The position numbers and the translations under genes were made by a program. Below are positions 646 through 29,519 of a DNA stretch of 64,000 bases, piece by piece. The stretch's first letter is position 1. Every line of letters begins with the position of its first letter. The notes below the pieces were generated by a model. That model made no database searches. It saw nothing but the letters and a program-made list of their open reading frames with translations, and had not been told where the DNA came from. Source of the stretch: Lytechinus pictus (lineage: Eukaryota); assembly GCF_037042905.1 (NCBI RefSeq), contig NC_087250.1, positions 21,764,001 through 21,828,000 on the forward strand, written 5' to 3'.

Positions 646-1989
646 AAATGGATTTTTACACATTTCTATCAATAAAAATGATAGAATATGATGACAGTTA
701 TTTTTGGAAAGAGTATCTTCAACAGCATTCATCGTTTCACGGTTCAATGAACATTTATTGAAAACAAAAAATACGATTTTCAAATATCATAGGCAAGTAT
801 TGTTTCATTTTGGTAACTGAAAATGATATTTTCTCAACTTTTTCGTTATGTTCATGACCAATTAACATGCTTCAATGATTGAAAGGCGTTTAATTAAACA
901 TTCACGCTTGTTTGAACATGTGGAATGTGATTAGCTCTTTTTACGTTATTGGAAAAATGCAATTTGTAACCATGGATAGCTGTCACAAACCTCCTTGCAT
1001 AGTTCATTTTATTTTATTTTTAAGAAAATCCCGATGTTTAATGCATCAGTGAGCACACAATATTCGAAAATTATGCAAATGAGAAGAAAGTTCAAGGCCT
1101 TGGCCTCACTTTGTGCCGTATCGAATGGTTATTTTGGTGTGCGCGCCTTTTGGATAGTGTTACTCTGAAGCAATGTGCGAAGTTTCATGAAATAACTGTT
1201 AGCAGAACTAAGTAACAAACACCGTCCATGAAACAAACCCTCATTTCATATTTGTTAAAATTTTTTACTTCCTCTCTCATAGACTTGTGTACATTATGGG
1301 TGCAAATGTTTGAGAATAAGTAACCCCTTATTCAATATGGTGGAACTTTTTTTCAAGGCTGTCTTTAGTAATGTCATTTGGCAGTAATGTTTATCAACCC
1401 ATGGGCAGAATTCCGTGCAAAAATGAAATCGATTTGTTTATTCATGGATGAGTGAGCACGCATCAAAGTGGGAAAATTTGTATTTTCAATGTCACAGACT
1501 CATTTTAAAGGGTAATAAAGTGAATATTTGGGGCAAATTTGGTTTCAAATGTAACTTTAATTGCTGTTGTTTTTATCATCCATCATTTCTATCACCACAC
1601 ACTTTCCGAACTTTAAACATTTTCATGGTTGAGCGAGCACATTCGAAAACTTAGGAATGAATACTCTTTATACTGCATAAATGTATTCTTTTCCTAACAA
1701 TTTCTCATGATCAGTTTACTTTATGGACAAATCAGTGGTGGATCCTGAATTTTAAAGTGGGGGAGAGGCCTATAATCGGGGGAGCCACCAACATTTTCAA
1801 ATTTTAATGTGATCTAACAAGTTGTAGAGGATACTACCATAAACCCCTATGATGATACGTCACAATACAGGGGCGGGGGAAGGGTTTTAAAAGTGGGGGG
1901 GGGGGGGGTCTGACCATGCAAAAAATCGCAATCGTATGGTAATTTTTACATTTTTGTACATGAGTAGTTAGGGGTTAGACCTCATCCTA

Positions 1990-2403
1990 ATTGACCTTTG
2001 ACCTTTGACCTTTGACCGCATGACCTTTGACCCCAACTTCCGGTCACTGTTGACCCCGTGACCCCACCTTCCGGTCAATCATGACCTTTGACCTTTGGGT
2101 ACGCGGTAAACAGGAAATTGGATAATGGAGCGCGGGAAGCGATTTTAATTGGATAATGGAGCGCGGGAAGCGATTTTAATTGGATAATGGAGCGCGGGAC
2201 GCGATTTTAATTGGATAATGACTCCGCGTGGGGACGCCATCTTAATTGGATAGTGAAACGCGGGACGCGATTTTAATTGGATAATGAGGGTCGGCGTGGG
2301 GACGCCACGCTTCAACCCGGAAATGATGGGGGTGAATCTTAAAGAAAGAGTAAAAAGCAGCGCGTGCTATAAAACCCGCCAACTTGGACACCCGGCGCAT
2401 TCT
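1990..2403 (+). promoter_or_regulatory. Terminal enhancer/Pol II promoter of the element (TGACCT direct repeats, CCGGAA motifs, six ATTGG boxes, TATAAAA, Inr-like)
   Basis: (TGACCTT)n at ~1992-2097. ATTGG at 2117, 2148, 2179, 2210, 2245, 2276 in 31-bp repeats with GCGCGGGA. TATAAAA at 2368-2374 and CATTC ~30 bp downstream. Repeated wholly or partly at ~19250-19660, 20150-20565, 25520-25800 and 27575-27985. Confidence 0.6.
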
Positions 2404-2460
2404 GGACCTCGGACTAACCAGAACAGCTCTGCCGCAGGAACACCAATTTATCTACATGCC

Positions 2461-2702
2461 ATGTTGATAACCGTGTGGATGTTGTTTGCGCTTTGTTGCT
2501 ACGTAGTCACGACCAATACCACCAATGACACAGAGTGTAAGTTCGATGGTTGTAATCATATATCATATATATATATATATTACACTTTAATTTTTGTATT
2601 TTGACTTGATATATTACAGTTTTTACCTTTGGATTTAATCTGGGGCAACTTTTTTTGAAAAGTGAAAAGTTATCTTTCTCCGCCTACCGGCAGATATGTT
2701 GA
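2461..2702 (+). CDS. Candidate two-exon 52-aa signal-peptide-bearing micropeptide, join(2461..2536,2620..2702)
   Basis: gccATG just downstream of the TATA/Inr. Hydrophobic start MLITVWMLFALCCYVVT. GTAAGT donor at 2537 and T-rich ...ttacag acceptor at 2619. The copy-variable (AT)n lies within the predicted intron. Confidence 0.3.
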
Positions 2703-3823
2703 CCCAGACTTCCGGTCAGCCACGACGTCACGTACCGTGAAATGGTATTACGACGCAGTTACGCAACCACCGTGATGTCATAGAATTACCCTTATCGAAC
2801 CATCGGTATTGCACCACCGTGGCGCAATCGTCACGTATAGGATACGATGCACAAAACAGACGTATGATTTCTGCACAGTTTCCTATTTAAAAAAGGATCT
2901 TTTTTCGCCTACCGGCGGATATGTCAACCGCCTCGCATGACGTCACCGGCTACGCAAGCACCGTGATGTCATCCCAGGGAATTACCCTTTACCCGGTATT
3001 GCACCATCGTGGCGCAATCGTCACGTATAGGATACGATGCGCAAAATAGACGTATGATTTCTATACAGTTAAAAAGTGAAAAGTTATCTTTCTCTGCCTA
3101 CCAGCAGATATGATCAAGTGCCTCGCGGTTCACGAATCGATCGCCCCATGCACGGCCAACGCGCGTCATTGAACTTGGGATATCCTATTCAAGGTGAAAG
3201 CCGACTCTCTCTCTGCCTCTTATAAAAATTATTGGTAATCCAACATGTGATTATAATCCTGATAATAGTGACATCTCAAGCTCTACTCATTCCAGACTCT
3301 CCCCCATCAAAACTCTCTGACTTTTCCATACTGTTTTGTACATACTTCCATACTTTTCATTTTAACTCACATGACCTGCACGGCTCTCTGACTCGCAAAA
3401 GTATACTATATTGAAACCAGTAGATGACTCCTTTCAATCAACTTCATTCATCCGCAGTACAGATGGTGATAACATGAAACACTATACAGTCAAGGATTAT
3501 TATTTTATTATTATTATCATTTATTCTATTCCATTTCAATGTAGATAGGTTCAGATAGTGTATAAACAGCAGATGTTTATACAAAGGTAAAAATAATGTA
3601 AGATATGTTCTCAAATTACGTTGTCACAACAAAATAATTAACTGTTCATTGTTAATATTAAAGTGAAGTTCTCGTTTTTCTATTTCTTCGCTTAACTTAA
3701 ATATTGTAACACATGTCTATGGATGGCATTCAGAAAATATGAACACAATGATGTTCAAACTGTCATTTATGTTGACGGCGTTTTCTTGGATTATTATTAT
3801 TCGACAAGCTGATGTTTGTGCCT

Positions 3824-4474
3824 TTAGTTGTAGGTTCCATCTTCACCCTCCGTTTCTTCTCCACCATCATCATTATCGTCATCGTCACCTTGATACTGGA
3901 ATAAACCATCGAATTGTGAACCATGTCTGGCTAACACTCTCTGTACGGCTTTCCGGAATCCCATGCCATTCTCTAATCTTTCCGTGAGATCGGACACGAT
4001 TTCACGATTGATGTCAGCGTCTTCGAGGTACACGTTCTGCTGCAAGAACTGAGAGTAAAGATCGAAAAAGATGCGTTTGATTGCCCACATTAGTTTCACG
4101 TGAGCCTTTTCTTTAGCGTCTTCCTCGTCCATTCCTTCTGAGATGTATTTCTGATATTTTTCGTCTCTCAAGTCCTCGGTGGCCGTCATGGCTTGCTCTA
4201 ACCATCCTCGATAAGCGAGGTTGTCTTCAGTTTCTTCCATGTTTGCTGTCATTGACGATTCGTGTCCATCGCTTTCTGATATGCTCGTTTCGGAATCATC
4301 GTTGGATTCTTCAACTCTTTGCATTTGAGAGGGTGGGTCGGAGTCTTCATCTTCACTCGTTTCTTCTCCAGTATCATGCTCATTTTGTTCATGCCTCTGC
4401 ATATCATACTTCCTACTAAAGGTTTTATCGCATCGTGAACAAGCGTAACGGTTGGACATATCCAATGTATTCAT
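3824..4474 (-). CDS. C2H2 zinc-finger / acidic / helical protein (216 aa from first ATG), element-borne, copy 1
   Basis: Intact ORF: YACSRCDKTFSRKYDMQRHEQNEH = C2H2 finger, followed by a D/E/S-rich linker, a helical domain and an acidic tail. Confidence 0.8.
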   Translation of the reverse strand: MNTLDMSNRYACSRCDKTFSRKYDMQRHEQNEHDTGEETSEDEDSDPPSQMQRVEESNDDSETSISESDGHESSMTANMEETEDNLAYRGWLEQAMTATEDLRDEKYQKYISEGMDEEDAKEKAHVKLMWAIKRIFFDLYSQFLQQNVYLEDADINREIVSDLTERLENGMGFRKAVQRVLARHGSQFDGLFQYQGDDDDNDDGGEETEGEDGTYN

Positions 4475-4567
4475 GTTGACTCGATGATTATTTGCTGGGA
4501 AATGAAGAAAATTAACGTTCAACCTTGTAATAATACGTAATCATGAAACGAGCGCGAAGGTACTTTG

Positions 4568-5090
4568 ATTCTTACGGATTCTTATGGATTTTTGCGGATT
4601 TTTGCGGATTCTTACGGATTTTTACGGATTATAGCTTACGGATTTTTACGGATTCTTACGGACTCTTACGGATTCTTACGGATTTTTACGGATTTTTACG
4701 GATTATAGCTTACGGATTTTTACGGATTTTTACGGATTTTTACGGATTCTTACGGATTCTTACGGACTCTTACGGATTCTTACGGACTCTTACGGATTCT
4801 TACGGATTTTTGCGGATTCTTACGGATTCTTACGGATTTTTACGGATTCTTACGGACTCTTACGGATTCTTACGGATTTTTGCGGATTCTTACGGATTTT
4901 TACGGATTTTTACGGATTCTTACGGATGTTTACGGATTCTTACGGATTTTTGCGGATTCTTACGGATATTTACGGATTCTTACGGATGTTTACGGATTAT
5001 AGCTTACGGATTTTTACGGATTTTTGCGGATTCTTACGGATATTTACGGATTCTTACGGATGTTTACGGATTTTTACGGATTCTTAGGGA
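4568..5090 (+). repeat. 10-bp tandem array (TTACGGATTC/TTACGGATTT), ~52 units, left arm of palindrome 1
   Basis: Directly visible. The inverted shorter array at 5175-5355 has ~18 units. Confidence 0.95.
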
Positions 5091-5174
5091 TTTCTTACGT
5101 ATTTATCAATGCTTTCATATAATCTCAAGGAAAATATGTTCATCCACATTAGAATGACCCATGTAAGGATGCAT

Positions 5175-5355
5175 AAGAATCCGTAAAAATCCGTAAACAT
5201 CCGTAAGAATCCGTAAAAATCCGTAAACATCCGTAAGAATCCGTAAATATCCGTAAGAATCCGTAAAAATCCGTAAAAATCCGTAAGCTATAATCCGTAA
5301 AAATCCGTAAGAATCCGCAAAAATCCGCAAAAATCCGTAAGAATCCGTAAGAATC
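5175..5355 (-). repeat. Inverted copy of the 10-bp array (~18 units), right arm of palindrome 1
   Basis: (gaatccgtaa/aaatccgtaa)n. Confidence 0.95.
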
Positions 5356-5447
5356 AAAGTACCTTCGCGCTCGTTTCATGATTACGTATTATTACAAGGT
5401 TGAACGTTAATTTTCTTCATTTCCCAGCAAATAATCATCGAGTCAAC

Positions 5448-6098
5448 ATGAATACATTGGATATGTCCAACCGTTACGCTTGTTCACGATGCGATAAAAC
5501 CTTTAGTAGGAAGTATGATATGCAGAGGCATGAACAAAATGAGCATGATACTGGAGAAGAAACGAGTGAAGATGAAGACTCCGACCCACCCTCTCAAATG
5601 CAAAGAGTTGAAGAATCCAACGATGATTCCGAAACGAGCGTATCAGAAAGCGATGGACACGAATCGTCAATGACAGCAAACATGGAAGAAACTGAAGACA
5701 ACCTCGCTTATCGAGGATGGTTAGAGCAAGCCATGACGGCCACCGAGGACTTGAGAGACGAAAAATATCAGAAATACATCTCAGAAGGAATGGACGAGGA
5801 AGACGCTAAAGAAAAGGCTCACGTGAAACTAATGTGGGCAATCAAACGCATCTTTTTCGATCTTTACTCTCAGTTCTTGCAGCAGAACGTGTACCTCGAA
5901 GACGCTGACATCAATCGTGAAATCGTGTCCGATCTCACGGAAAGATTAGAGAATGGCATGGGATTCCGGAAAGCCGTACAGAGAGTGTTAGCCAGACATG
6001 GTTCACAATTCGATGGTTTATTCCAGTATCAAGGTGACGATGACGATAATGATGATGGTGGAGAAGAAACGGAGGGTGAAGATGGAACCTACAACTAA
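5448..6098 (+). CDS. C2H2 zinc-finger protein, copy 2 (inverted duplicate, one I>V change)
   Basis: Same ORF as 3824-4474 on the opposite strand. A pyrimidine-rich acceptor-like ttttcttcatttcccag lies just upstream, and AATAAA is at ~6397. Confidence 0.8.
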   Translation: MNTLDMSNRYACSRCDKTFSRKYDMQRHEQNEHDTGEETSEDEDSDPPSQMQRVEESNDDSETSVSESDGHESSMTANMEETEDNLAYRGWLEQAMTATEDLRDEKYQKYISEGMDEEDAKEKAHVKLMWAIKRIFFDLYSQFLQQNVYLEDADINREIVSDLTERLENGMGFRKAVQRVLARHGSQFDGLFQYQGDDDDNDDGGEETEGEDGTYN

Positions 6099-7169
6099 AG
6101 GCACAAACATCAGCTTGTCGAATAATAATAATCCAAGAAAACGCCGTCAACATAAATGACAGTTTGAACATCATTGTGTTCATATTTTCTGAATGCCATC
6201 CATAGACATGTGTTACAATATTTAAGTTAAGCGAAGAAATAGAAAAACGAGAACTTCACTTTAATATTAACAATGAACAGTTAATTATTTTGTTGTGACA
6301 ACGTAATTTGAGAACATATCTTACATTATTTTTACCTTTGTATAAACATCTGCTGTTTATACACTATCTGAACCTATCTACATTGAAATGGAATAGAATA
6401 AATGATAATAATAATAAAATAATCATCCTTGACTGTATAGTGTTTCATGTTATCACCATCTGTACTGCGGATGAATGAAGTTGATTGAAAGGAGTCATCT
6501 ACTGGTTTCAATATAGTATACTTTTGCGAGTCAGAGAGCCGTGCAGGTCATGTGAGTTAAAATGAAAAGTATGGAAGTATGTACAAAACAGTATGGAAAA
6601 GTCAGAGAGTTTTGATGGGGGAGAGTCTGGAATGAGTAGAGCTTGAGATGTCACTATTATCAGGATTATAATCACATGTTGGATTACCAATAATTTTTAT
6701 AAGAGGCAGAGAGAGAGTCGGCTTTCACCTTGAATAGGATATCCCAAGTTCAATGACGCGCGTTGGCCGTGCATGGGGCGATCGATTCGTGAACCGCGAG
6801 GCACTTGATCATATCTGCTGGTAGGCAGAGAAAGATAACTTTTCACTTTTTAACTGTATAGAAATCATACGTCTATTTTGCGCATCGTATCCTATACGTG
6901 ACGATTGCGCCACGATGGTGCAATACCGGGTAAAGGGTAATTCCCTGGGATGACATCACGGTGCTTGCGTAGCCGGTGACGTCATGCGAGGCGGTTGACA
7001 TATCCGCCGGTAGGCGAAAAAAGATCCTTTTTTAAATAGGAAACTGTGCAGAAATCATACGTCTGTTTTGTGCATCGTATCCTATACGTGACGATTGCGC
7101 CACGGTGGTGCAATACCGATGGTTCGATAAGGGTAATTCTATGACATCACGGTGGTTGCGTAACCCTTA

Positions 7170-8320
7170 CAAAAAATTCCTGCAGTACTTTAGTGGTACT
7201 CTGTTGTACCTGTGTGATACTTCTGTCATACACGACGGTACCTCAGAATTACCACAGGACTTCTGTGGTATCACTCTGTGATAGTTCTGTCATACTTCTG
7301 TGGTACAGGAAAATATGAAAATTTCCTGCAATACCTTAATGGTACTCTGTCGTACCTGTGTGATACTTCTGTTGTACAAAACTGTATATAGAATTACAAC
7401 AGGACTTCTGTGGTATCACTCTGTGATAGTTCTGTCATACTTCTGTGGTACAGGAAAATATGAAAATTTCATGCAATACCTTAATGGTACTCTGTCGTAC
7501 CTGTGTGATACTGCTGTTGTACAAAACTGTATAGAATTACAACAGGACTTCTGTGGTATCACTCTGTGATAGTTCTGTCATACTTCTGTGGTACATAAAA
7601 ATATGAAAATTTCATGCAATACCTTAATGGTACTCTGTCGTACCTGTGTGATACTTCTGTTGTACAAAACTGTATAAGGAATTACTACAGGACTCCTGTG
7701 GTATCACTCTGTGATAGTTCTACTTCTGTGGTACATAAAAATATGAAAATTTCATGCAATACCTTAATGGTACTCTGTCGTACCTGTGTAATACTTCTGT
7801 TGTACATAACTGTATACAATATCACTCTGTGATAGTTATGTCGTACTTCTGTTGTACATGAAAATTCTAAAATATCCTGCAGTACTTCTATGACAACCCT
7901 GCGATACTTCTGTTGTATATGAACATTTTTTAAATTTCCTGCAGTACTCCTATTACTAAGCACTTCTATGGAAACCCTGTGATACTTCTGTGGTACATGA
8001 ACATTTTGAAATTTCCTGCAGTACTCGATCCTATTAAAGACACTTCTATGAAAACCCTGTGATACTTCTGTGGTAAATGAAAATTTTGAAATTTCCTGCA
8101 GGACTCAATATAGGCACTTCTAAAATTCTATGGCAACCCCAGTGCTATACTTTCAAAATTTCCTGCGGTACTTCTCATGCAGCCACCCCAGAAATATGAC
8201 TGAAACTGTATCACAGACGCTACTGGTGTATTTTCTGTGGTACAGTACATGAAAAAATTAGTTTCCTTCAGTACTTGTATGGAAGCCCTGTTTGTACCAC
8301 AGACTAATTTTTTTATTTCC
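7170..8320. repeat. Left subterminal tandem repeats (~140-bp units, decaying inward) of the CMC-like element
   Basis: Repeated aatttc(c/a)tgcaataccttaatggtactctgtcgtacctgtgtgatacttctg...caggacttctgtggtatcactctgtgatag. Confidence 0.85.
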
Positions 8321-11300
8321 AGTGAGGGATTTATCTTTTTTTTCAGTTTCGGGAGAGGTCAGTAGCGTATTGAGTCTTATATTTTTAGAAGGCCATATGG
8401 CTTAAAAGGGCACCATTCATTTTAAAAAGTACAATTTTTTATATGAAAATTTAATTTTGTGATAGCTAGATTGTGACATATAGGCCCTATTTCAAAATTA
8501 TATTTCACCCTGTCCCATTGTGTAGGTCTATATCAGCGAGGGGGGGGGGGGGTTATGCCTACTGAGACTCAGAGGTTTTAAGTTTGATAGCTTCTATTTC
8601 TACGAGAAAGGGTACTATACGTACTATAGATCAAAACTAGGAGCAAAGCGCGAACTGAAAAATGCGAAAAATTATTGACCCCAAAATGGGCAACTTATAT
8701 TTTGAGGACTATTGTTCGTTTTCAGGGTTATTTCTTTTTCATGCGCTCTTTTAAATTTCAATTATCATTTTTGTTTTGTTTGTTCGCCACTTATTTTTCA
8801 TAAAAAACAGGATGAATAATTAAAAAATGACTATATTTAAAAGGGTACGTGTTGAAATATACAGGACACACCTAACACTCTTAGAGCTTAATGGTTGTGA
8901 GGAAGCCGGGTTGAATTTCAAAGAGATATTGTAATGAATAAAAATATAAGCATGAACGTATTATTCTACTTCATCCATCTCTGTCTAACAATACAAGAAA
9001 ATAATTGAAGGGGAGGTCAACGCTAGAGATAATCAATAAATAGAGTAAAATTCACAAAACAAAATGCTTAAAATTTATTCAAAATCGGATGACAAATAAC
9101 GAAGTTAAGTTGAATTTTAAGGATTTGCAATATTCCCATGAAACAGTTTTATTTAGGCATGTCTCATGAATATTCATTAGGTGGGCTGATGATGTCATAT
9201 CCCATGTTCTTTTGTACAATATATGAAATTAGATTTATTCAACATATTTCTACCAAGAACTTAAACAATTGGAATGACGACTAATTAACCGCATTAGTTA
9301 TTTAATGCAGCAACTTTACAATGGGGACACATTATTTACACATGTATTGAAAAAATAGATAATCATAATTTCATATCTAACATTAAAAAAGAAAAATGGG
9401 AATGTCACATCATCAGCCCACCAAATGAATATTCATGACGATGTGCACACTATCTGTTTTCACAAAATATTGATAAACAATTAACATAAGAAAGTTCAGC
9501 GTTGAATGTTGATTAAAAAATAAATCTCAGTTAAAATGCTATCTAAGATTTTGTTTTACACGTTTCATAACCAAGTTTTAATGCGATTCTGGCCCCTTAA
9601 AGTTTTTATTGCGAGAAAATACATTTTTCCAAGTTTCCCATCTATTTTTTTATTTATTTTTTTTTAGTAAAAAGGACCTATTTTCTTACAAATATATTAT
9701 TATAAATAAAATTACTTCAATATTTGTTCTCCTATTCACAATATTTTTTACAGGTGGAATAGGATAAACTAAAAATAGGATATTTAATTTCCATTTTAAG
9801 GCCTATTTTTTGCTTTATATCCCCGGTTTATATCTTTGCCACCTTGCAATATGTTAGCCAGGCTGGTTTATATCTATTTCTTTTTAAATCAAATAAATTT
9901 GGATATTTTCAATCTATTTTTATGATGCGAAGCTATATATAGTTTGTAAATATGTTTTTTAATTGCAAGAACAATCTTGTATCTCTGTTCACATATGATG
10001 GCAGTTTATTTTGCTTCTTTTTTTCTAATTTGTATGAAGTTTGTATCTATATATTTTCAAACTATTTTCCATCCTTAAAGTGTCACAACCGATATCATAT
10101 TATTTTTTACCTCGTTGGCAAAGTTATTATCTTTTCTTATGTTTCGCTTCAAAATGGTATCTTTATATTTGCTTGTCTTGCTCCTCCACCCCTTATCAAA
10201 ATACCCTGCCGGCACTTGATCTAAGATTATTTTCTTTTACTACTTGAACCTTATAAAGGGATCTTTCCTTCGATCGCAAGAAAGGATAAAATGTGTGTTT
10301 TTGAAAAGAAATAAAATTAAAAATACATAGGATTGGAGCTGTGATTTTCCTCATTGCTTTCTTTGTCATCCTACTTGCATACTAGTAGGCCTATATAACA
10401 TATTTTCAGTAAAATTGTGAGACATGTTTTTAAATCCTATCCTTATATTAAAAAAAAGAATAAAGAGAAAGAAAAAAATTAAAAGACATAGAAAAGAAAA
10501 AGAAAGGAAGAAGAAATAAATATTTGAATTTTACTTTATTCAATTCCTTTACGTTAATAATATGATATATAAATGATGGCGACAATAGTCAAATTGTCTG
10601 GTTGCCAAGTAAAAAGTAAGACCCCCCCCCCCCCCTCCGAGCTCCCCGTACAAACGCACGGACTGTACCGTATACGTGTTTCCGGTTCCGCCATTTGAAA
10701 AAAAACGTTCGTAACTGCTCAGCTGAACCCGAAGCTTGATGAAGAAGGCCGTCAATATTTCAACAAAAACTAACAGAATATGGATCAGATTCGGACAACG
10801 ACTTCTTAAGACATTCACACAACAGGCTAAACAGTAAGTTAGATCCATTTTTCGTAGTTTGGCGCGGCATGCACTTAAATTTCTTCGACTTTTTAATCAT
10901 TACCGTACGGCCACTGCACTGCCGTTGTTCCCGATCGCTTATCGGGTGGGGGCTGATCTGCGGTGTGCGCGGCCGGGGACGGCCAACGGCTGGCTAAGTT
11001 AGTAGTATATTGATGGCGGCGGTGAGGATGTTTGTATTGTCATGATTGTAGCCAGGTCAGGGGTGGGCGCTAATGCAGTTTCGCACCGGCCGATTAATAC
11101 CAGCATACCTCATCACCAATATTTGTTCCCAAATGTCATGACAAGTCTCTCAGTCACATTTGAAGTCAATATATCCACCACTTTTCAAAATATCGTGATC
11201 GGGAATGGCTGTAGCCTTGTAGGCCTAGCCAGGCGGCTTCTAGAGAGTGAAAATCATTTACTAACGTAACTTCGTAAGGTCACTCTCATATGAAGCCAGG

Positions 11301-11589
11301 GATCCTTTCTCATATACCCACACAGAGGAAGCCAAAACTTGAAACTTTCACCCCCGGCCCCGAGATTTCTACTTTCCTTCTAAAAGATCTAGCCTAACGT
11401 TAGACCTAAATCATGTAGGGCCTACATGGGATAAAACTTAATTTCCAACATTTCTACGCTCTCGTCGTTATTTTTGAAGAAGAAATTCATTCCAAAAAAT
11501 GCGAAAAATATCATGATTAGACGGAAGAGACTTGCCCGATGTTTACGCCGCCATCTTGTTTTCTATTGTTCTTCGCCAACGTTACAGAC

Positions 11590-12130
11590 GCGAACTTCGA
11601 GACCATGAACTCGATCTGATATTCTGAGTGACAGAGGTGGGATTTTATGGGGGTGGGGAATATAAAATTCATGCAACATCTTGATTTTTAAAAAGAATTA
11701 AAACTAATATTCTTACTTTACACAAAGTTTCATTTAGTTCCATGCTTTTATCAGTCTCAAAATTGGTGATTTAGAGCCAACATGAAGTTCCTCACACATA
11801 TTTATAATTCGCTGCCGATTTCAAAACATTGCATGCGGATGCAATATTCGCGAGATACCGGGCCTGGTCTGACCCGACCGACCTCACACGCATGCGATGT
11901 ATTGAATATTGATACGTGTGAGAAACTTCATGTTGGCTCTAAATCATCAATTTTGAGATGGATAGAGGCATGGAGAAGAACTGAAACTTTGTGTGCAGGA
12001 AGAATATTAGTTTTAATTTTTTTAAAGAGCGTGATGTTGCATGAATTTGATATCCCCCCCCCCCATAAGATCCCACTTTTTGTCACTCGGAATATCAGAT
12101 GACAGATCCAGTTCACGGTCTCAAAGTTTG
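11590..12130. mobile_element. Palindromic MITE (~540 bp)
   Basis: 11590-11790 is an imperfect reverse complement of 11920-12130 (ctgatattctgagtgacagaggtggg / cccactttttgtcactcggaatatcag). Confidence 0.7.
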
Positions 12131-12597
12131 GGTAGGTGGAGCGTAGTGTAGCAATAGTGAAGTGGAGTGGAGCCTGCACAAACTTCACTCGAGGTAGGCA
12201 ATCCCACAAATTTAAAAGAGGTTTCTATAAAATCAAGTCCGGCCTTCTATGAACATGACAAACTTACGAAAAGATGTGAAGTCAATTCACCCTAAATATC
12301 ATCAATATCCCTCAAATAGCTTCATTTAAGCACTAATTTCTCTTCCGGTTGATAAAATATGGATCCGTCTTTAATTTCCAAAATTGTTCGTCTAACTAGC
12401 TAAAGGACGCATGTTTTATCTACATATTAAAGACACTACATAGAAAAGACTAGGCACAAAGACTATTATACATGTAAATCGATGCAAAGCATTACGCGAT
12501 GTCGGCAAAGTGCCCAATCTTCTTATTGTAAAGACTTTAGCGACAATAACAGACTGTGAGTAAGGTTAAAATGCTCCTCTACTTTTAATGTTTTCAT

Positions 12598-17879: not shown

Positions 17880-18875
17880 TGCTGGATCACAGGAAATTCT
17901 TACAAACTACTACGCCTAACAAACCAGTGCAGGACGGTGTCGTGAGAAAATCGCACAGACTACTACAGGACAATACCATAGGATTGTCACAGGAAATCAA
18001 CAAGAATACCCCTGCAGGATTACCACAGTAAAGTATCACAAGAAGGCTGCAGGATGAGACCAATAATGCCACAGAAGATATCAAAGATCAGTATCACAGG
18101 AATACCACAGGACAGTACTGCAGGAATTGTCCTGCGGTAAGGTCTCTTGGTATTCCTGCAGTACTGTCCTGTAGTACTGTTCTGTAGTACTTTCCTGTGA
18201 TACTGGTCTGCGGAATTCCTAAAGTACTGTCCTGTCATACTGTCCTGTGATACTATTTATCACCACAGGATAGTATCACAGGACAGTACTACAGGAATAC
18301 CAGACCAGTATCACAGGACAGTACTACAGGAATACCAGACCAGTATCACAGGACAGTACTACAGGAATACCAGACCAGTATCACAGGACAGTACTACAGG
18401 AATACCAGACCAGTATCACAGGACAGTACTACAGGACACAGTACCAGAAGCCTGCGGTACTCCTGTAGTACTGTCCTGCGATACTGTTCTGTAGTACTTC
18501 CCTGTGATACTGGTCTGCGGTATTCCTGTAGTACTGTCCTGTCATACTGTCCTGTCATACTATCCTGTCATACTGTCCTGTCATACTATCATGTGATACT
18601 ATCCTGTGATACTATCCTGTGATATTGTCCTGTAGTACTAATAGTAGTGTGGTAGTGGTTGTAGCGGTTGTAGCGGTTGTGGTGATCGTGTCCTGTCATA
18701 CTTCCTGCCATACTTATGCGGTTATTACCACAGGAAGTATCACAGGACACGGACCTGTTGTACTCCTGTTGTACATTTCTGTAGTACCGTCCCAAATTAC
18801 GTGCACGTAATTCCTGCAGTACTTTCCTGCGATACTTCCTGCAGTACATATCACAGAGTACTACAGGAATTTTTT
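17880..18875. repeat. Right subterminal repeats of the CMC-like element (35-bp and 12-bp units, both orientations)
   Basis: (cagaccagtatcacaggacagtactacaggaatac)n at 18270-18435, and (tactgtcctgtca-like)n at 18530-18630. Confidence 0.85.
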
Positions 18876-19056
18876 GTAAGGGAACTGCGTCGTAATACCA
18901 TTTCACGGTGACGTCGTGGCTGACCGGAAGTCTGGGTCAACATATCTGCCGGTAGGCGGAGAAAGATAACTTTTCACTTTTCAAAAAAAGTTGCCCCAGA
19001 TTAAATCCAAAGGTAAAAACTGTAATATATCAAGTCAAAATACAAAAATTAAAGTG

Positions 19057-19094
<38 letters not shown>

Positions 19095-20722
19095 CATGAT
19101 TACAACCATCGAACTTACACTCTGTGTCATTGGTGGTATTGGTCGTGACTACGTAGCAACAAAGCGCAAACAACATCCACACGGTTATCAACATGGCATG
19201 TAGATAAATTGGTGTTCCTGCGGCAGAGCTGTTCTGGTTAGTCCGAGGTCCAGAATGCGCCGGGTGTCCAAGTTGGCGGGTTTTATAGCACGCGCTGCTT
19301 TTTACTCTTTCTTTAAGATTCACCCCCATCATTTCCGGGTTGAAGCGTGGCGTCCCCACGCCGACCCTCATTATCCAATTAAAATCGCGTCCCGCGTTTC
19401 ACTATCCAATTAAGATGGCGTCCCCACGCGGAGTCATTATCCAATTAAAATCGCGTCCCGCGCTCCATTATCCAATTAAAATCGCTTCCCGCGCTCCATT
19501 ATCCAATTAAAATCGCTTCCCGCGCTCCATTATCCAATTTCCTGTTTACCGCGTACCCAAAGGTCAAAGGTCATGATTGACCGGAAGGTGGGGTCACGGG
19601 GTCAACAGTGACCGGAAGTTGGGGTCAAAGGTCATGCGGTCAAAGGTCAAAGGTCAATTAGGATGAGGTCTAACCCCTGCTACGTAGTCACGACCAATAC
19701 CACCAATGACACAGAGTGTAAGTTCGATGGTTGTAATCATGTAATATATATATATATATATATATATTACACTTTAATTTTTGTATTTTGACTTGATATA
19801 TTACAGTTTTTACCTTTGGATTTAATCTGGGGCAACTTTTTTTGAAAAGTGAAAAGTTATCTTTCTCCGCCTACCGGCAGATATGTTGACCCAGACTTCC
19901 GGTCAGCCACGACGTCACCGTGAAATGGTATTACGACGCAGTTACGCAACCACCGTGATGTCATAGAATTACCCTTATCGAACCATCGGTATTGCACCAC
20001 CGTGGCGCAATCGTCACGTATAGGATACGATGCACAAAACAGACGTATGATTTCTGCACAGTTTCCTATTTAAAAAAGGATCTTTTTTCGCCTACCGGCG
20101 GATATGTCAACCGCCTCGCAAGCCGTAGTTAGGGGTTAGACCTCATCCTAATTGACCTTTGACCTTTGACCGCATGACCGCATGACCTTTGACCCCAACT
20201 TCCGGTCACTGTTGACCCCGTGACCCCACCTTCCGGTCAATCATGACCTTTGACCTTTGGGTAGGCGGTAAACAGGAAATTGGATAATGGAGCGCGGGAA
20301 GCGATTTTAATTGGATAATGGAGCGCGGGAAGCGATTTTAATTGGATAATGGAGCGCGGGACGCGATTTTAATTGGATAATGACTCCGCGTGGGGACGCC
20401 ATCTTAATTGGATAGTGAAACGCGGGACGCGATTTTAATTGGATAATGAGGGTCGGCGTGGGGACGCCACGCTTCAACCCGGAAATGATGGGGGTGAATC
20501 TTAAAGAAAGAGTAAAAAGCAGCGCGTGCTATAAAACCCGCCAACTTGGACACCCGGCGCATTCTGGACCTCGGACTAACCAGAACAGCTCTGCCGCAGG
20601 AACACCAATTTATCTACATGCCATGTTGATAACCGTGTGGATGTTGTTTGCGCTTTGTTGCTACGTAGTCACGACCAATACCACCAATGACACAGAGTGT
20701 AAGTTCGATGGTTGTAATCATG

Positions 20723-20756
<34 letters not shown>

Positions 20757-21997
20757 CACTTTAATTTTTGTATTTTGACTTGATATATTACAGTTTTTAC
20801 CTTTGGATTTAATCTGGGGCAACTTTTTTTGAAAAGTGAAAAGTTATCTTTCTCCGCCTACCGGCAGATATGTTGACCCAGACTTCCGGTCAGCCACGAC
20901 GTCACCGTGAAATGGTATTACGACGCAGTTACGCAACCACCGTGATGTCATAGAATTACCCTTATCGAACCATCGGTATTGCACCACCGTGGCGCAATCG
21001 TCACGTATAGGATACGATGCACAAAACAGACGTATGATTTCTGCACAGTTTCCTATTTAAAAAAGGATCTTTTTTCGCCTACCGGCGGATATGTCAACCG
21101 CCTCGCATGACGTCACCGGCTACGCAAGCACCGTGATGTCATCCCAGGGAATTACCCTTTACCCGGTATTGCACCATCGTGGCGCAATCGTCACGTATAG
21201 GATACGATGCGCAAAATAGACGTATGATTTCTATACAGTTAAAAAGTGAAAAGTTATCTTTCTCTGCCTACCAGCAGATATGATCAAGTGCCTCGATCGC
21301 GGTTCACGAATCGATCGCCCCATGCACGGCCAACGCGCGTCATTGAACTTGGGATATCCTATTCAAGGTGAAAGCCGACTCTCTCTCTGCCTCTTATAAA
21401 AATTATTGGTAATCCAACATGTGATTATAATCCTGATAATAGTGACATCTCAAGCTCTACTCATTCCAGACTCTCCCCCATCAAAACTCTCTGACTTTTC
21501 CATACTGTTTTGTACATACTTCCATACTTTTCATTTTAACTCACATGACCTGCACGGCTCTCTGACTCGCAAAAGTATACTATATTGAAACCAGTAGATG
21601 ACTCCTTTCAATCAACTTCATTCATCCGCAGTACAGATGGTGATAACATGAAACACTATACAGTCAAGGATGATTATTTTATTATTATTATCATTTATTC
21701 TATTCCATTTCAATGTAGATAGGTTCAGATAGTGTATAAACAGCAGATGTTTATACAAAGGTAAAAATAATGTAAGATATGTTCTCAAATTACGTTGTCA
21801 CAACAAAATAATTAACTGTTCATTGTTAATATTAAAGTGAAGTTCTCGTTTTTCTATTTCTTCGCTTAACTTAAATATTGTAACACATGTCTATGGATGG
21901 CATTCAGAAAATATGAACACAATGATGTTCAAACTGTCATTTATGTTGACGGCGTTTTCTTGGATTATTATTATTCGACAAGCTGATGTTTGTGCCT

Positions 21998-22648
21998 TTA
22001 GTTGTAGGTTCCATCTTCACCCTCCGTTTCTTCTCCACCATCATCATTATCGTCATCGTCACCTTGATACTGGAATAAACCATCGAATTGTGAACCATGT
22101 CTGGCTAACACTCTCTGTACGGCTTTCCGGAATCCCATGCCATTCTCTAATCTTTCCGTGAGATCGGACACGATTTCACGATTGATGTCAGCGTCTTCGA
22201 GGTACACGTTCTGCTGCAAGAACTGAGAGTAAAGATCGAAAAAGATGCGTTTGATTGCCCACATTAGTTTCACGTGAGCCTTTTCTTTAGCGTCTTCCTC
22301 GTCCATTCCTTCTGAGATGTATTTCTGATATTTTTCGTCTCTCAAGTCCTCGGTGGCCGTCATGGCTTGCTCTAACCATCCTCGATAAGCGAGGTTGTCT
22401 TCAGTTTCTTCCATGTTTGCTGTCATTGACGATTCGTGTCCATCGCTTTCTGATATGCTCGTTTCGGAATCATCGTTGGATTCTTCAACTCTTTGCATTT
22501 GAGAGGGTGGGTCGGAGTCTTCATCTTCACTCGTTTCTTCTCCAGTATCATGCTCATTTTGTTCATGCCTCTGCATATCATACTTCCTACTAAAGGTTTT
22601 ATCGCATCGTGAACAAGCGTAACGGTTGGACATATCCAATGTATTCAT
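21998..22648 (-). CDS. C2H2 zinc-finger protein, copy 3 (I allele)
   Basis: Identical translation to copy 1. Confidence 0.8.
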   Translation of the reverse strand: MNTLDMSNRYACSRCDKTFSRKYDMQRHEQNEHDTGEETSEDEDSDPPSQMQRVEESNDDSETSISESDGHESSMTANMEETEDNLAYRGWLEQAMTATEDLRDEKYQKYISEGMDEEDAKEKAHVKLMWAIKRIFFDLYSQFLQQNVYLEDADINREIVSDLTERLENGMGFRKAVQRVLARHGSQFDGLFQYQGDDDDNDDGGEETEGEDGTYN

Positions 22649-22741
22649 GTTGACTCGATGATTATTTGCTGGGAAATGAAGAAAATTAACGTTCAACCTT
22701 GTAATAATACGTAATCATGAAACGAGCGCGAAGGTACTTTG

Positions 22742-23539
22742 ATTCTTACGGATTCTTATGGATTTTTGCGGATTTTTGCGGATTCTTACGGATTTTTACG
22801 GATTATAGCTTACGGATTTTTACGGATTCTTACGGACTCTTACGGATTCTTACGGATTTTTACGGATTTTTACGGATTATAGCTTACGGATTTTTACGGA
22901 TTTTTACGGATTTTTACGGATTCTTACGGATTCTTACGGACTCTTACGGATTCTTACGGATTCTTACGGACTCTTACGGATTCTTACGGATTTTTGCGGA
23001 TTCTTACGGATTCTTACGGATTTTTACGGATTCTTACGGACTCTTACGGATTCTTACGGATTTTTGCGGATTCTTACGGATTTTTACGGATTTTTACGGA
23101 TTCTTACGGATGTTTACGGATTCTTACGGATTTTTGCGGATTCTTACGGATATTTACGGATTCTTACGGATGTTTACGGATTATAGCTTACGGATTTTTA
23201 CGGATTTTTGCGGATTCTTACGGATATTTACGGATTCTTACGGATGTTTACGGATTTTTACGGATTCTTAGGGATTTCTTACGTATTTATCAATGCTTTC
23301 ATATAATCTCAAGGAAAATATGTTCATCCACATTAGAATGACCCATGTAAGGATGCATAAGAATCCGTAAAAATCCGTAAACATCCGTAAGAATCCGTAA
23401 AAATCCGTAAACATCCGTAAGAATCCGTAAATATCCGTAAGAATCCGTAAAAATCCGTAAAAATCCGTAAGCTATAATCCGTAAAAATCCGTAAGAATCC
23501 GCAAAAATCCGCAAAAATCCGTAAGAATCCGTAAGAATC
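22742..23539. repeat. Inverted pair of 10-bp TTACGGATT(C/T) arrays around the ~85-bp centre of palindrome 2
   Basis: Same as 4568-5355, with the left array one unit longer net. Confidence 0.95.
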
Positions 23540-23631
23540 AAAGTACCTTCGCGCTCGTTTCATGATTACGTATTATTACAAGGTTGAACGTTAATTTTCT
23601 TCATTTCCCAGCAAATAATCATCGAGTCAAC

Positions 23632-24282
23632 ATGAATACATTGGATATGTCCAACCGTTACGCTTGTTCACGATGCGATAAAACCTTTAGTAGGAAGTAT
23701 GATATGCAGAGGCATGAACAAAATGAGCATGATACTGGAGAAGAAACGAGTGAAGATGAAGACTCCGACCCACCCTCTCAAATGCAAAGAGTTGAAGAAT
23801 CCAACGATGATTCCGAAACGAGCGTATCAGAAAGCGATGGACACGAATCGTCAATGACAGCAAACATGGAAGAAACTGAAGACAACCTCGCTTATCGAGG
23901 ATGGTTAGAGCAAGCCATGACGGCCACCGAGGACTTGAGAGACGAAAAATATCAGAAATACATCTCAGAAGGAATGGACGAGGAAGACGCTAAAGAAAAG
24001 GCTCACGTGAAACTAATGTGGGCAATCAAACGCATCTTTTTCGATCTTTACTCTCAGTTCTTGCAGCAGAACGTGTACCTCGAAGACGCTGACATCAATC
24101 GTGAAATCGTGTCCGATCTCACGGAAAGATTAGAGAATGGCATGGGATTCCGGAAAGCCGTACAGAGAGTGTTAGCCAGACATGGTTCACAATTCGATGG
24201 TTTATTCCAGTATCAAGGTGACGATGACGATAATGATGATGGTGGAGAAGAAACGGAGGGTGAAGATGGAACCTACAACTAA
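23632..24282 (+). CDS. C2H2 zinc-finger protein, copy 4 (V allele)
   Basis: Identical translation to copy 2. Confidence 0.8.
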   Translation: MNTLDMSNRYACSRCDKTFSRKYDMQRHEQNEHDTGEETSEDEDSDPPSQMQRVEESNDDSETSVSESDGHESSMTANMEETEDNLAYRGWLEQAMTATEDLRDEKYQKYISEGMDEEDAKEKAHVKLMWAIKRIFFDLYSQFLQQNVYLEDADINREIVSDLTERLENGMGFRKAVQRVLARHGSQFDGLFQYQGDDDDNDDGGEETEGEDGTYN

Positions 24283-27200
24283 AGGCACAAACATCAGCTT
24301 GTCGAATAATAATAATCCAAGAAAACGCCGTCAACATAAATGACAGTTTGAACATCATTGTGTTCATATTTTCTGAATGCCATCCATAGACATGTGTTAC
24401 AATATTTAAGTTAAGCGAAGAAATAGAAAAACGAGAACTTCACTTTAATATTAACAATGAACAGTTAATTATTTTGTTGTGACAACGTAATTTGAGAACA
24501 TATCTTACATTATTTTTACCTTTGTATAAACATCTGCTGTTTATACACTATCTGAACCTATCTACATTGAAATGGAATAGAATAAATGATAATAATAATA
24601 AAATAATCATCCTTGACTGTATAGTGTTTCATGTTATCACCATCTGTACTGCGGATGAATGAAGTTGATTGAAAGGAGTCATCTACTGGTTTCAATATAG
24701 TATACTTTTGCGAGTCAGAGAGCCGTGCAGGTCATGTGAGTTAAAATGAAAAGTATGGAAGTATGTACAAAACAGTATGGAAAAGTCAGAGAGTTTTGAT
24801 GGGGGAGAGTCTGGAATGAGTAGAGCTTGAGATGTCACTATTATCAGGATTATAATCACATGTTGGATTACCAATAATTTTTATAAGAGGCAGAGAGAGA
24901 GTCGGCTTTCACCTTGAATAGGATATCCCAAGTTCAATGACGCGCGTTGGCCGTGCATGGGGCGATCGATTCGTGAACCGCGAGGCACTTGATCATATCT
25001 GCTGGTAGGCAGAGAAAGATAACTTTTCACTTTTTAACTGTATAGAAATCATACGTCTATTTTGCGCATCGTATCCTATACGTGACGATTGCGCCACGAT
25101 GGTGCAATACCGGGTAAAGGGTAATTCCCTGGGATGACATCACGGTGCTTGCGTAGCCGGTGACGTCATGCGAGGCGGTTGACATATCCGCCGGTAGGCG
25201 AAAAAAGATCCTTTTTTAAATAGGAAACTGTGCAGAAATCATACGTCTGTTTTGTGCATCGTATCCTATACGTGACGATTGCGCCACGGTGGTGCAATAC
25301 CGATGGTTCGATAAGGGTAATTCTATGACATCACGGTGGTTGCGTAACTGCGTCGTAATACCATTTCACGGTGACGTCGTGGCTGACCGGAAGTCTGGGT
25401 CAACATATCTGCCGGTAGGCGGAGAAAGATAACTTTTCACTTTTCAAAAAAAGTTGCCCCAGATTAAATCCAAAGGTAAAAACTGTAATATATCAAGTCA
25501 AATATCAAAAAGTCATATATCAAATCGCGTCCCGCGTTTCACTATCCAATTAAGATGGCGTCCCCACGCGGAGTCATTATCCAATTAAAATCGCGTCCCG
25601 CGCTCCATTATCCAATTAAAATCGCTTCCCGCGCTCCATTATCCAATTAAAATCGCTTCCCGCGCTCCATTATCCAATTTCCTGTTTACCGCGTACCCAA
25701 AGGTCAAAGGTCATGATTGACCGGAAGGTGGGGTCACGGGGTCAACAGTGACCGGAAGTTGGGGTCAAAGGTCATGCGGTCAAAGGTCAAAGGTCAATTA
25801 GGATGAGGTCTAACCCCTGCTACGTAGTCACGACCAATACCACCAATGCTGTTTATACACTATCTGAACCTATCTACATTGAAATGGAATAGAATAAATG
25901 ATAATAATAATAAAATAATCATCCTTGACTGTATAGTGTTTCATGTTATCACCATCTGTACTGCGGATGAATGAAGTTGATTGAAAGGAGTCATCTACTG
26001 GTTTCAATATAGTATACTTTTGCGAGTCAGAGAGCCGTGCAGGTCATGTGAGTTAAAATGAAAAGTATGGAAGTATGTACAAAACAGTATGGAAAAGTCA
26101 GAGAGTTTTGATGGGGGAGAGTCTGGAATGAGTAGAGCTTGAGATGTCACTATTATCAGGATTATAATCACATGTTGGATTACCAATAATTTTTATAAGA
26201 GGCAGAGAGAGAGTCGGCTTTCACCTTGAATAGGATATCCCAAGTTCAATGACGCGCGTTGGCCGTGCATGGGGCGATCGATTCGTGAACCGCGATCGAG
26301 GCACTTGATCATATCTGCTGGTAGGCAGAGAAAGATAACTTTTCACTTTTTAACTGTATAGAAATCATACGTCTATTTTGCGCATCGTATCCTATACGTG
26401 ACGATTGCGCCACGATGGTGCAATACCGGGTAAAGGGTAATTCCCTGGGATGACATCACGGTGCTTGCGTAGCCGGTGACGTCATGCGAGGCGGTTGACA
26501 TATCCGCCGGTAGGCGAAAAAAGATCCTTTTTTAAATAGGAAACTGTGCAGAAATCATACGTCTGTTTTGTGCATCGTATCCTATACGTGACGATTGCGC
26601 CACGGTGGTGCAATACCGATGGTTCGATAAGGGTAATTCTATGACATCACGGTGGTTGCGTAACTGCGTCGTAATACCATTTCACGGTGACGTCGTGGCT
26701 GACCGGAAGTCTGGGTCAACATATCTGCCGGTAGGCGGAGAAAGATAACTTTTCACTTTTCAAAAAAAGTTGCCCCAGATTAAATCCAAAGGTAAAAACT
26801 GTAATATATCAAGTCAAAATACAAAAATTAAAGTGTAATATATATATATATATATATATATTACATGATTACAACCATCGAACTTACACTCTGTGTCATT
26901 GGTGGTATTGGTCGTGACTACGTAGCAACAAAGCGCTTTCTGATACGCTCGTTTCGGAATCATCGTTGGATTCTTCAACTCTTTGCAAGGATGCTTGCTT
27001 GCGTAGCCGGTGACGTCATGCGAGGCGGTTGACATATCCGCCGGTAGGCGAAAAAAGATCCTTTTTTAAATAGGAAACTGTGCAGAAATCATACGTCTGT
27101 TTTGTGCATCGTATCCTATACGTGACGATTGCGCCACGGTGGTGCAATACCGATGGTTCGATAAGGGTAATTCTATGACATCACGGTGGTTGCGTAACTG

Positions 27201-27369
27201 CGTCGTAATACCATTTCACGGTGACGTCGTGGCTGACCGGAAGTCTGGGTCAACATATCTGCCGGTAGGCGGAGAAAGATAACTTTTCACTTTTCAAAAA
27301 AAGTTGCCCCAGATTAAATCCAAAGGTAAAAACTGTAATATATCAAGTCAAAATACAAAAATTAAAGTG

Positions 27370-27413
<44 letters not shown>

Positions 27414-29519
27414 CATGATTACAACCATCGAACTTACACTCTGTGTCATTGGTGGTATTGGTCGTGACTACGTAGCAACAAAGCGCAAACAACATCCACA
27501 CGGTTATCAACATGGCATGTAGATAAATTGGTGTTCCTGCGGCAGAGCTGTTCTGGTTAGTCCGAGGTCCAGAATGCGCCGGGTGTCCAAGTTGGCGGGT
27601 TTTATAGCACGCGCTGCTTTTTACTCTTTCTTTAAGATTCACCCCCATCATTTCCGGGTTGAAGCGTGGCGTCCCCACGCCGACCCTCATTATCCAATTA
27701 AAATCGCGTCCCGCGTTTCACTATCCAATTAAGATGGCGTCCCCACGCGGAGTCATTATCCAATTAAAATCGCGTCCCGCGCTCCATTATCCAATTAAAA
27801 TCGCTTCCCGCGCTCCATTATCCAATTAAAATCGCTTCCCGCGCTCCATTATCCAATTTCCTGTTTACCGCGTACCCAAAGGTCAAAGGTCATGATTGAC
27901 CGGAAGGTGGGGTCACGGGGTCAACAGTGACCGGAAGTTGGGGTCAAAGGTCATGCGGTCAAAGGTCAAAGGTCAAAGGTCAATTAGGATGAGGTCTAAC
28001 CCCTAACTACTTACATGCTTTTGGAAAAAAAGTGGGGGGAGGGGCTGAAGCCCCCCCCCCCCGCTTCCGCGGCCCCTGCAATACATTCTGCTCACTCAAC
28101 CATGAACATACAATATCAAAATTGTGTGTGGAGTGGCTAAATGATGGATAGTAATACAGCATAACACCATAAAATTCACCTAAAAACAACTTTTGCCCAA
28201 TCTGAAAAACGACTCTTGTGACTTTCAAAAATGATCATTTTTAATTCAATCTTTATTTACTCATGCATGAATCAATCGATCAATCTCATTTTTTTCCAGA
28301 AGCTGCTTAATGAGTTTAGAAAACTACCTACGAAATATCATATTTCAAAATAATTCCGTTCAAAAGTTACAGCAATTTGATTTAGGGGGGACTTACTTTT
28401 TTTGTTGTGTATAGAAAAACATATAGGCCTATTCTTGTTATAAAAGTCTAAAAAACAAGTGCATATGTATACCCAGAATTATGTTTACAACCCTCGTAAA
28501 TGTGATTTCATATTCATACTTCAATAATAAATGAAAAAAGAGTCAAACAATTATTAAAGGAATATATTCAGTATGAAGACCAGCAAGATGAAAAATGTCT
28601 CTTATTTACGTTATATAATGGGTGGGGGTGGAGTGTGAAACATAATTATTAAAGGCCTAATGATTGTATTAGTGTGTCAAATCTAACGCAAAATTAACCC
28701 CCCCTCCATATACCATTAACACCAATCGGAACCTGTCAATCCGTAGGCCTATATATCACGGACCTCCGGCCATGGCTATATCAAAATAAGAATTTCGGGC
28801 CATGATGTGATATGCGCTATACAAGAACCGCTTTATTATTATTATTATTATTAACTCAGCGACCGTCGAATGAATTGCATTCTAGTATAGATAATTAGAG
28901 CCTACTACACAACAAGATAACCTTGTTTCCTGAGTATTTTTCAAGGGGAAAACGAAATAAAGTTTTTGGTGCTTGGTTGTGAAACATGCATGAACTTTCT
29001 CCATATGGGAGTAAAAGAATGAAGTAATTAAATTCCCCTTTCACCCGGCTGATCTAAAATGAGGTAAGACGATGGTCAAAGCAGTGCCCCGCCCCCACTA
29101 AGAATATATATATATATAAAAATATGGGAAATAAAGAAAAGGACACTCAAACACAAAGTTGTTGTTGTTGTTTTAAATAGGTAAACTTAGTCAGTTTTTG
29201 GCTATTGTTGCCTTGTTAATTTGCTTTTTTCCAAAAACGGAATAATTTATTTTTTGAATCTATATCAGTGAGAAAAAATAAAGGAATTGAGGAAGAAAAG
29301 TTCTTAGGAAATCGTGCACGACCATCCCTCCTGGCCTGTATAGCACGTTATCCTGACAAGCCTGCTCGTTTGGACTATAGTTGGGAAAATAGTTTTTATA
29401 CGCATGCGCGAAAAATGCCAATAGCTGCAAGAATGAAGATGTGATATGACACTTTATATTTCCCCAGTTGAAGAGTCGATCGTTTCCAATTCGTTTCCTA
29501 TAGTATGCTACAATTTACA

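Follow-up and report, generated by a model that had tools for sequence, protein, structure and literature searches.

Polinton/Maverick elements carry terminal inverted repeats (TIRs) that end in 5'-AG...CT-3', and their replication and movement are known mainly from models. Non-autonomous derivatives of these elements are recorded in Repbase-type 'Polinton-N' entries. Adenovirus is known to produce incomplete particles with inverted repeats of one genome end, as well as end-joined concatemers when host repair is unblocked, and foldback transposon families make target-site duplications (TSDs) of 8-9 bp. Sea-urchin foldback elements of Liebermann et al. 1983 are cited in PMC4079207. Here, we analyze a stretch of 64,000 nucleotides from the sea urchin Lytechinus pictus (the window; contig NC_087250.1, hereafter C6, positions 21,764,001 to 21,828,000), in which positions 1963-28011 are occupied by inverted and reiterated copies of a mobile element ending in AGTAGT...ACTACT. 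A first-pass annotation of the window had read this locus as an integrated defective Maverick genome made only of copies of one viral end. We find that it is, with near certainty, a compound copy of an abundant, non-autonomous palindromic family, presumably mobilized by Polintons. A normal member of the family is a palindrome of 2.6-6.9 kb, in which each arm consists of a 536-bp Polinton right end, a zinc-finger body and half of a centre made of a 10-bp satellite.

A palindromic family with Polinton ends

Positions within arms are given as coordinates of a reference arm, U (window 1963-5175). Searching the 812-Mb assembly with U returned many 5-6-kb palindromes laid out in the same way, and the terminus pattern of the family occurs 154 times (83 forward and 71 reverse), as against 0 and 1 for a control pattern. 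Spans between adjacent plus and minus termini, computed among the first 88 of the 154 termini listed, have an overall median of 5.2 kb, and 31 of 36 pairs lie between 2.6 and 6.9 kb. The other five pairs are 16.9 kb (an autonomous Polinton), 26.0 kb (the window locus), 38 kb, 48.8 kb and, for one unrelated pair, 9 Mb apart. The 38-kb pair (C5:48689700-48727774) and the 48.8-kb pair (C8:29707589-29756382) could be nested insertions or larger, cargo-bearing forms. Perfect 6-bp TSDs flank 10 of the 12 copies for which both ends were located (20 copies fetched; ends AGTAGTTA...TAACTACT), and three further family copies have the TSDs TGAAAT, TTCTTA and TGCTTT. The family is thus multi-copy in the manner of a non-autonomous Polinton derivative, with many sites and a TSD for each. 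Members of this family normally take the form of the inverted-arm unit, which is not the one-off defective genome first proposed, and copy lengths cluster near 5 kb instead of near the 16.9 kb of an autonomous parent. Substitution divergence between the two arms of an element has a median of 0.60% (21 loci), compared with a median of 3.45% between elements (169 pairs aligning over more than 1 kb), and hence either each transposition renders the arms identical or gene conversion maintains their similarity. One chimeric outlier (L031, C17:29772100-29779400) has arms that are 5.4% diverged from each other; one of them is 95% like the window arm, with a 100% identical ORF, and the other approximately 88%.

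A pPolB match located between two family-type termini led to an autonomous Polinton on the same contig as the window (C6:1299810-1316732), which supplies the autonomous parent that the first-pass annotation had proposed to look for. The element is 16,923 bp long, with the TSD CATATT and TIRs of approximately 541 bp at 96.5% identity, and it encodes pPolB in an open 1,247-aa ORF (PF03175, 2e-34), an rve integrase with a chromodomain, a Pox_A32 ATPase and a PC4-like ORF. A 445-aa ORF with homologues only at pPolB loci resembles double jelly-roll capsid clusters (score 0.98), which we treat as a lead only, and four further ORFs have no match in Pfam. Three copies of this lineage were found, on C6, C17 and C21, as against at least 31 paired elements of the palindromic family. 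Its right end is 87-90% identical to U1-536, and the terminal 23 nt are identical. The match runs past the TIR into parent sequence that is unique to the right end, which indicates that a single Polinton end gave rise to both ends of the small element. Together with the 6-bp TSD and the AG...CT ends, this match in the first 536 bp of each arm upholds the affiliation with Polinton/Maverick elements, and termini shared in this way are those of a non-autonomous Polinton derivative. The description as 'one viral end' fits U1-536 only, given that U537-3213, approximately 2.6 kb of each 3.2-kb arm (~83%), is absent from the parent. The 536-bp module, with its AGTAGT terminus and subterminal repeats, is presumably what the helper integrase and replication proteins recognize. 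Members insert with 6-bp duplications, by means of enzymes that, judging from the shared ends and TSDs, would be supplied in trans.

The body of each arm encodes a 216-aa protein, in which one C2H2 finger is accompanied by an acidic linker and by a C-terminal domain that is helical and conserved. Genome-wide there are 310 candidate matches to this ORF, of which 150 were scored, and 127 of these lack an internal stop. Substitution patterns indicate that the ORF is under purifying selection: the ratio of nonsynonymous to synonymous divergence (dN/dS) is 0.15 between two lineages (dN 0.104, dS 0.675), and 0.33-0.69 between own-lineage copies and the window ORF, the latter on few changes. It is a conserved family gene and not mere debris of a reiterated end. 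Named homologues are uncharacterized or misnamed sea-urchin proteins. The AlphaFold model has a mean predicted local distance difference test score (pLDDT) of 68; a Foldseek search of it against the PDB returned only C2H2 fingers, none at E ≤0.001, and the best wide VIA-align hit (Z 5.9) lies on generic helices. The protein is probably a DNA-binding finger joined to a helical C-terminal domain. An origin as a Polinton gene was considered and rejected, with none of the 150 scored matches near the 18 capsid-like matches or within 20 kb of any of the 36 pPolB matches.

The second lineage is exemplified by C20:8817011-8822079, a 5,069-bp element with arms 99.9% identical, ends AGTAGTATATATAGG and the TSD CACACT, which has only the ORF region in common with the first lineage. 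Termini identical to those of the second lineage occur elsewhere only at C19:4647614-4662238, where they lie 14.6 kb apart; a helper was sought there, and no pPolB or capsid-like match was found in that interval.

Structure of the compound locus

The compound occupies a single insertion site. Its left outer end reads tacatg followed by AGTAGTTAGGGG at 1963 (in a longer reading, tacatg followed by AGTAGTTAGGGGTTAGACC) and its right outer end CCCCTAACTACT followed by tacatg at 28011 (in a longer reading, GGTCTAACCCCTAACTACT followed by tacatg). The flanks are a high-copy repeat with 1,567 candidates in the genome, and three of three fetched paralogs of it read ...tttttgTACATGcttttgg... with one TACATG. 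These empty sites show that the two outer ends mark one insertion with a 6-bp duplication, in agreement with the first-pass annotation. Both the inverted AGTAGT...ACTACT ends and the 6-bp TSD are of Polinton/Maverick type. The same annotation had the insertion splitting a host MITE (miniature inverted-repeat transposable element) with an intact TSD of its own, which the paralogs do not bear out: the supposed MITE (window 1866-1962 and 28012-28075) is a piece of a larger, highly abundant repeat, and the three paralogs align past its ends, including the proposed CAATA TSD.

Self-BLAST and tiling of the window against U gave the layout in Table 1. After subtraction of a nested transposon, 14,328 bp remain, all of them tiled by copies of U except approximately 18 nt (~10 nt at 25512-25521 and 8 nt at 26988-26995). 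They amount to two near-complete units, A and B, plus fragments, approximately 2.4 units in length. From the left, U1 leads through the centre into an inverted arm as far as U796, where the nested element intervenes; the arm resumes from U798 to 8, and junction J1 joins it to U535 to ~1000, which ends at J2. Unit B then runs from U2 through the centre and back to U629, and J3 connects it to U311 to 8, a copy of J1, 30 nt of U535-565 and J5. The right end consists of U1609 to 526, J6a, 54 nt of U2308-2361 with 8 nt of filler, J6b and U~1000 to 1. Five copies of the terminus, at 1963 and 20125 (forward) and at 19678, 25818 and 28011 (reverse), and four copies of the ORF are present where first annotated, but only the two outer termini are intact: the final 7 nt are missing at 19678 and at 25818, and 1-3 nt at 20125. 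The absence of enzyme and capsid genes also stands, as a Pfam scan of 30 of the 35 ORFs of at least 75 aa in 1963-18882 detected no Polinton core domain (including PF03175 pPolB and the rve integrase); the other five are overlapping frames of the 10-bp satellite or mirror copies in the inverted arm. The structure is thereby confirmed as real in the assembly.

Table 1 Features of the compound element and its insertion site in the window
Feature	Position	Strand	Evidence or remarks
Left TSD copy TACATG	1957..1962	.	Single TACATG in 3/3 paralogous empty sites
Right TSD copy TACATG	28012..28017	.	Direct sequence
Polinton right-end module U1-536, left outer arm	1963..2498	+	AGTAGT terminus intact, TTGACCT heptamers, 31/66-bp tandem repeats; 87-90% identical to parent right end
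Unit A forward arm (S1, U1-3171)	1963..5133	+	Self-BLAST/tiling
C2H2 zinc-finger ORF copy 1, 216 aa	3824..4474	-	
Asymmetric palindrome centre, 10-bp satellite	4567..5355	.	52 copies forward (4567-5103), 18 inverted (5174-5355)
Unit A reverse arm, inner part (U2801 to 796)	5163..7164	-	Self-BLAST/tiling
Zinc-finger ORF copy 2	5448..6098	+	
Nested 11.7-kb transposon, unrelated, non-coding	7165..18882	.	TIR CCCTTACAAAAAATTCCTG, 2-3-bp duplication (AA/AAC)
Unit A reverse arm, outer part (U798 to 8; terminus without last 7 nt), then J1	18883..19678	-	
Filler segment S4 (U535 to ~1000, 19-nt internal deletion), then J2	19679..20124	+	100% identical to inverse of 26485-26927
Unit B (forward arm, same asymmetric centre, reverse arm to U629)	20125..25511	+	99.3% identical to 1964-7164
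Zinc-finger ORF copy 3	~21998..22648	-	Genome match C6:21786001-21786648, 100%
Zinc-finger ORF copy 4	~23632..24282	+	Genome match C6:21787632-21788279, 100%
327-bp exact copy of 19382-19708 (U311 to 8, J1, 30 nt of U535-565)	25522..25848	-	Bounded by J3 and J5
Segment S7 (U1609 to 526)	25849..26936	-	Self-BLAST/tiling
54-nt templated insert from inside ORF (U2308-2361) plus 8 nt filler	26934..26995	+	Forms J6a, J6b
Right outer arm end S8 (U~1000 to 1), ACTACT intact	26996..28011	-	Self-BLAST/tiling

Private differences among the copies are small, with four substitutions and a 4-bp insertion in S1, three substitutions in S5a and at most four in any window copy; the compound is accordingly young and its parts of similar age. 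Copies can also be told apart by (AT)n length, by a 7-bp repeat unit and by a 4-bp insertion. One site separates forward from reverse arms in both units A and B, and unit B was therefore copied from a whole palindrome. The nested transposon, which sits within the reverse arm of unit A, has a perfect 19-nt TIR, subterminal tandem repeats of 145 bp and 80 bp, and no ORF longer than 154 aa.

The internal junctions bear the signatures of host repair and not of an integrase: microhomology of 1 nt at J1, 2 nt at J5, 3 nt at J6a and, with a 19-nt deletion, 2-3 nt at J2; and filler of approximately 20 nt at J3 and 8 nt at J6b. None of the window's internal junctions combines intact termini with a direct 6-bp duplication, and these are not transposition joins; nested transposition as the source of the inner copies was rejected on the same grounds. 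J1 is present twice, with 326 nt around it, as a 100% identical 327-bp block, which implies that events took place in two or more rounds. Of the 12 breakpoint sides in the window, two (at U8 and U2-4) fall no more than 8 nt from a terminus, for which the chance is approximately 4e-4 by a hand estimate that takes breakpoints as uniform over the 3.1-kb arm. Recurrent breakpoints occur near U1000 (J2 left and J6b right) and at U526-535, twice each. An 8-nt palindrome, CTACGTAG, found at window 2490-2500 (U530-537) and in each copy, lies exactly at the boundary between the Polinton module and the family body; it resembles two truncated AGTAG termini placed head to head, and the J1 and J6a breakpoints use it.

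Termini joined to internal element DNA were also found at three other loci. At C7:12158867-12167656 an 8.8-kb compound with one TSD contains three tandem right ends, with inner ends intact or lacking 1 nt. The compound at C19:11382436-11388577 likewise has one TSD, and 4 nt are missing from each end of its inner unit, with mirror-image junctions. From C17:8134560 onward, a tandem array with a period of 4,103 bp has U1251 joined directly to an intact terminus. This array (C17:8134560-8180127) extends over at least 36 kb, was formed from a one-ended family unit and represents a transition from transposon to satellite. No host DNA was found inside any of the four compounds (window, C7, C19 and C17). 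In a separate case on C8 (L044, C8:33606301-33615800), host DNA forms part of an inverted duplication (C8:33606844-33614830): at positions 4338-8530 of this locus, the right host flank of one copy recurs, inverted, before a second copy.

Origin of the compound

The reading that we favor, with a probability of roughly 0.45, is that the compound was assembled from linear extrachromosomal copies before integration and then inserted once. Linear copies of the element and fragments of them would have been joined end to internal by host-type end joining or template switching, leaving microhomology of 1-3 nt, filler of 8-20 nt, the templated insert of 54 nt and termini trimmed by 1-7 nt. The resulting 14.3-kb molecule would have kept one intact terminus at each extremity and been inserted once, at TACATG, by a helper integrase, and the unrelated 11.7-kb transposon would have landed in it afterwards. 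Inner joins at, or a few nucleotides from, the element tips are an indirect sign of free linear copies and, with no host DNA inside, suggest that copies with free ends took part. Several observations weigh against this reading. The duplicated 327-bp block around J1 needs at least two rounds and not one joining, and the substitutions are too few to order events. Lengths do not cluster near that of the parent, so there is no sign of selection for packageable size. No extrachromosomal form was observed, and the assembly is unconfirmed by reads. Long palindromes are, moreover, fragile in chromosomes, and one break at ~U1000 in an integrated copy followed by template-switch repair produces an identical pattern, in which a single junction is hidden.

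This last scenario can be developed into an origin in situ, in which a 5-6-kb member integrated at TACATG, its palindrome broke (for example near U1000 in the right arm), and repair by repeated template switching, similar to microhomology-mediated break-induced replication (MMBIR) or synthesis-dependent strand annealing (SDSA), and/or by the capture of free linear sisters expanded it to 14.3 kb between the ends it already had. Deleting one block, from U1000 of the unit A reverse arm to J6b, restores a canonical element with one visible junction, and the repeated use of the breakpoints near U1000 and at U526-535, the copying of J1 as a block, and a templated insert with filler typical of host replicative repair all fit such a history, as does the existence on C8 of an inverted duplication that includes host flank beside another copy. 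We nonetheless rate it somewhat below assembly before integration, given that the breakpoints at U2-4 and U8 require templates or fragments with their ends at element termini, which an integrated copy does not provide, that no host DNA was copied in, and that compounds with one TSD recur at C7 and C19. It is improbable that the reiterated region at 18883-28011 results from the wrong joining of reads that belong to a simple palindromic copy. Inverted copies that are 97-100% identical are hard to assemble, and J1 and J2 are bridged by no independent contig: a read search found nine runs, seven of them with part of the stretch, and among Logan contigs of four runs over 19300-20500 none covers 19669-19832 or bridges J1/J2, a result that is neutral on the structure. 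However, the repeat-length, insertion and private substitution differences among the copies are not what a single sequence entered twice would show, the right-hand repeated region measures just 9.1 kb and has the nested element on one side and host flank on the other, so that single long reads could anchor it, and like compounds exist at three other loci. We give very little credence to a defective-interfering genome spawned directly from an autonomous polintovirus by reiteration of one genome end. Both ends do come from the same (right) Polinton end, and 14.3 kb compares with 16.9 kb for the parent; yet approximately 83% of each arm is not in the parent, so that the arms are not wholly helper-derived (536 of ~3,170 bp per arm), the ORF is not linked to pPolB (0 of 150 scored matches within 20 kb of 36 pPolB matches), and the palindromic unit belongs to an old multi-copy family with a selected gene.

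Beyond assembly from linear copies before integration, a wider interpretation, which we regard as speculative and rather unlikely, is that the zinc-finger palindromes form a lineage of satellite-like hyperparasites on polintoviruses, with linear, protein-primed replication on helper machinery that would keep the arms identical. On this interpretation, concatemers and compounds would form in the nucleus and integrate through any intact ends left to them, and the window, C7, C19 and C17 loci would be fossil snapshots of such free replicative forms. If true, this would be the first evidence at sequence level that Polinton-type elements pass through a linear extrachromosomal stage in an animal.

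Relation to known systems

The family outnumbers its helper lineage more than 20-fold and thereby offers a natural system for studying parasitism on Polintons. It keeps one Polinton end, duplicated, maintains its own gene of DNA-binding type under selection and has near-identical arms; it further illustrates how tandem arrays can arise from a mobile element. No description of palindromic, gene-bearing non-autonomous Polintons was found in those parts of the literature that the search covered.

Like non-autonomous Polintons, the family has ends in common with an autonomous Polinton, a 6-bp TSD, 5'-AG...CT-3' termini and multiple copies, and encodes neither pPolB nor integrase. In contrast to Polinton-N elements, it is nearly all palindrome, with arms of 2.3-3 kb and a conserved zinc-finger gene in both of them, takes both ends from one Polinton end, and forms compounds and tandem multi-end arrays. 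The closest autonomous element, C6:1299810-1316732, is identical to it in the terminal 23 nt, 87-90% identical over the first 536 bp and equal in TSD length, whereas no pPolB, integrase, ATPase or capsid-like ORF was found among the scanned ORFs (30 of 35) of the window element. Reiterated ends and the loss of terminal nucleotides at joins recall the defective and concatemeric genomes of adenovirus, which are also linear and protein-primed; unlike those products, the family is independent, transposing, gene-bearing and fixed in the genome. With foldback transposons (for example, Drosophila FB) it shares very long inverted arms with tandem repeats, a variable centre and the seeding of satellites and arrays, but it differs from them in having Polinton ends and a 6-bp TSD throughout.

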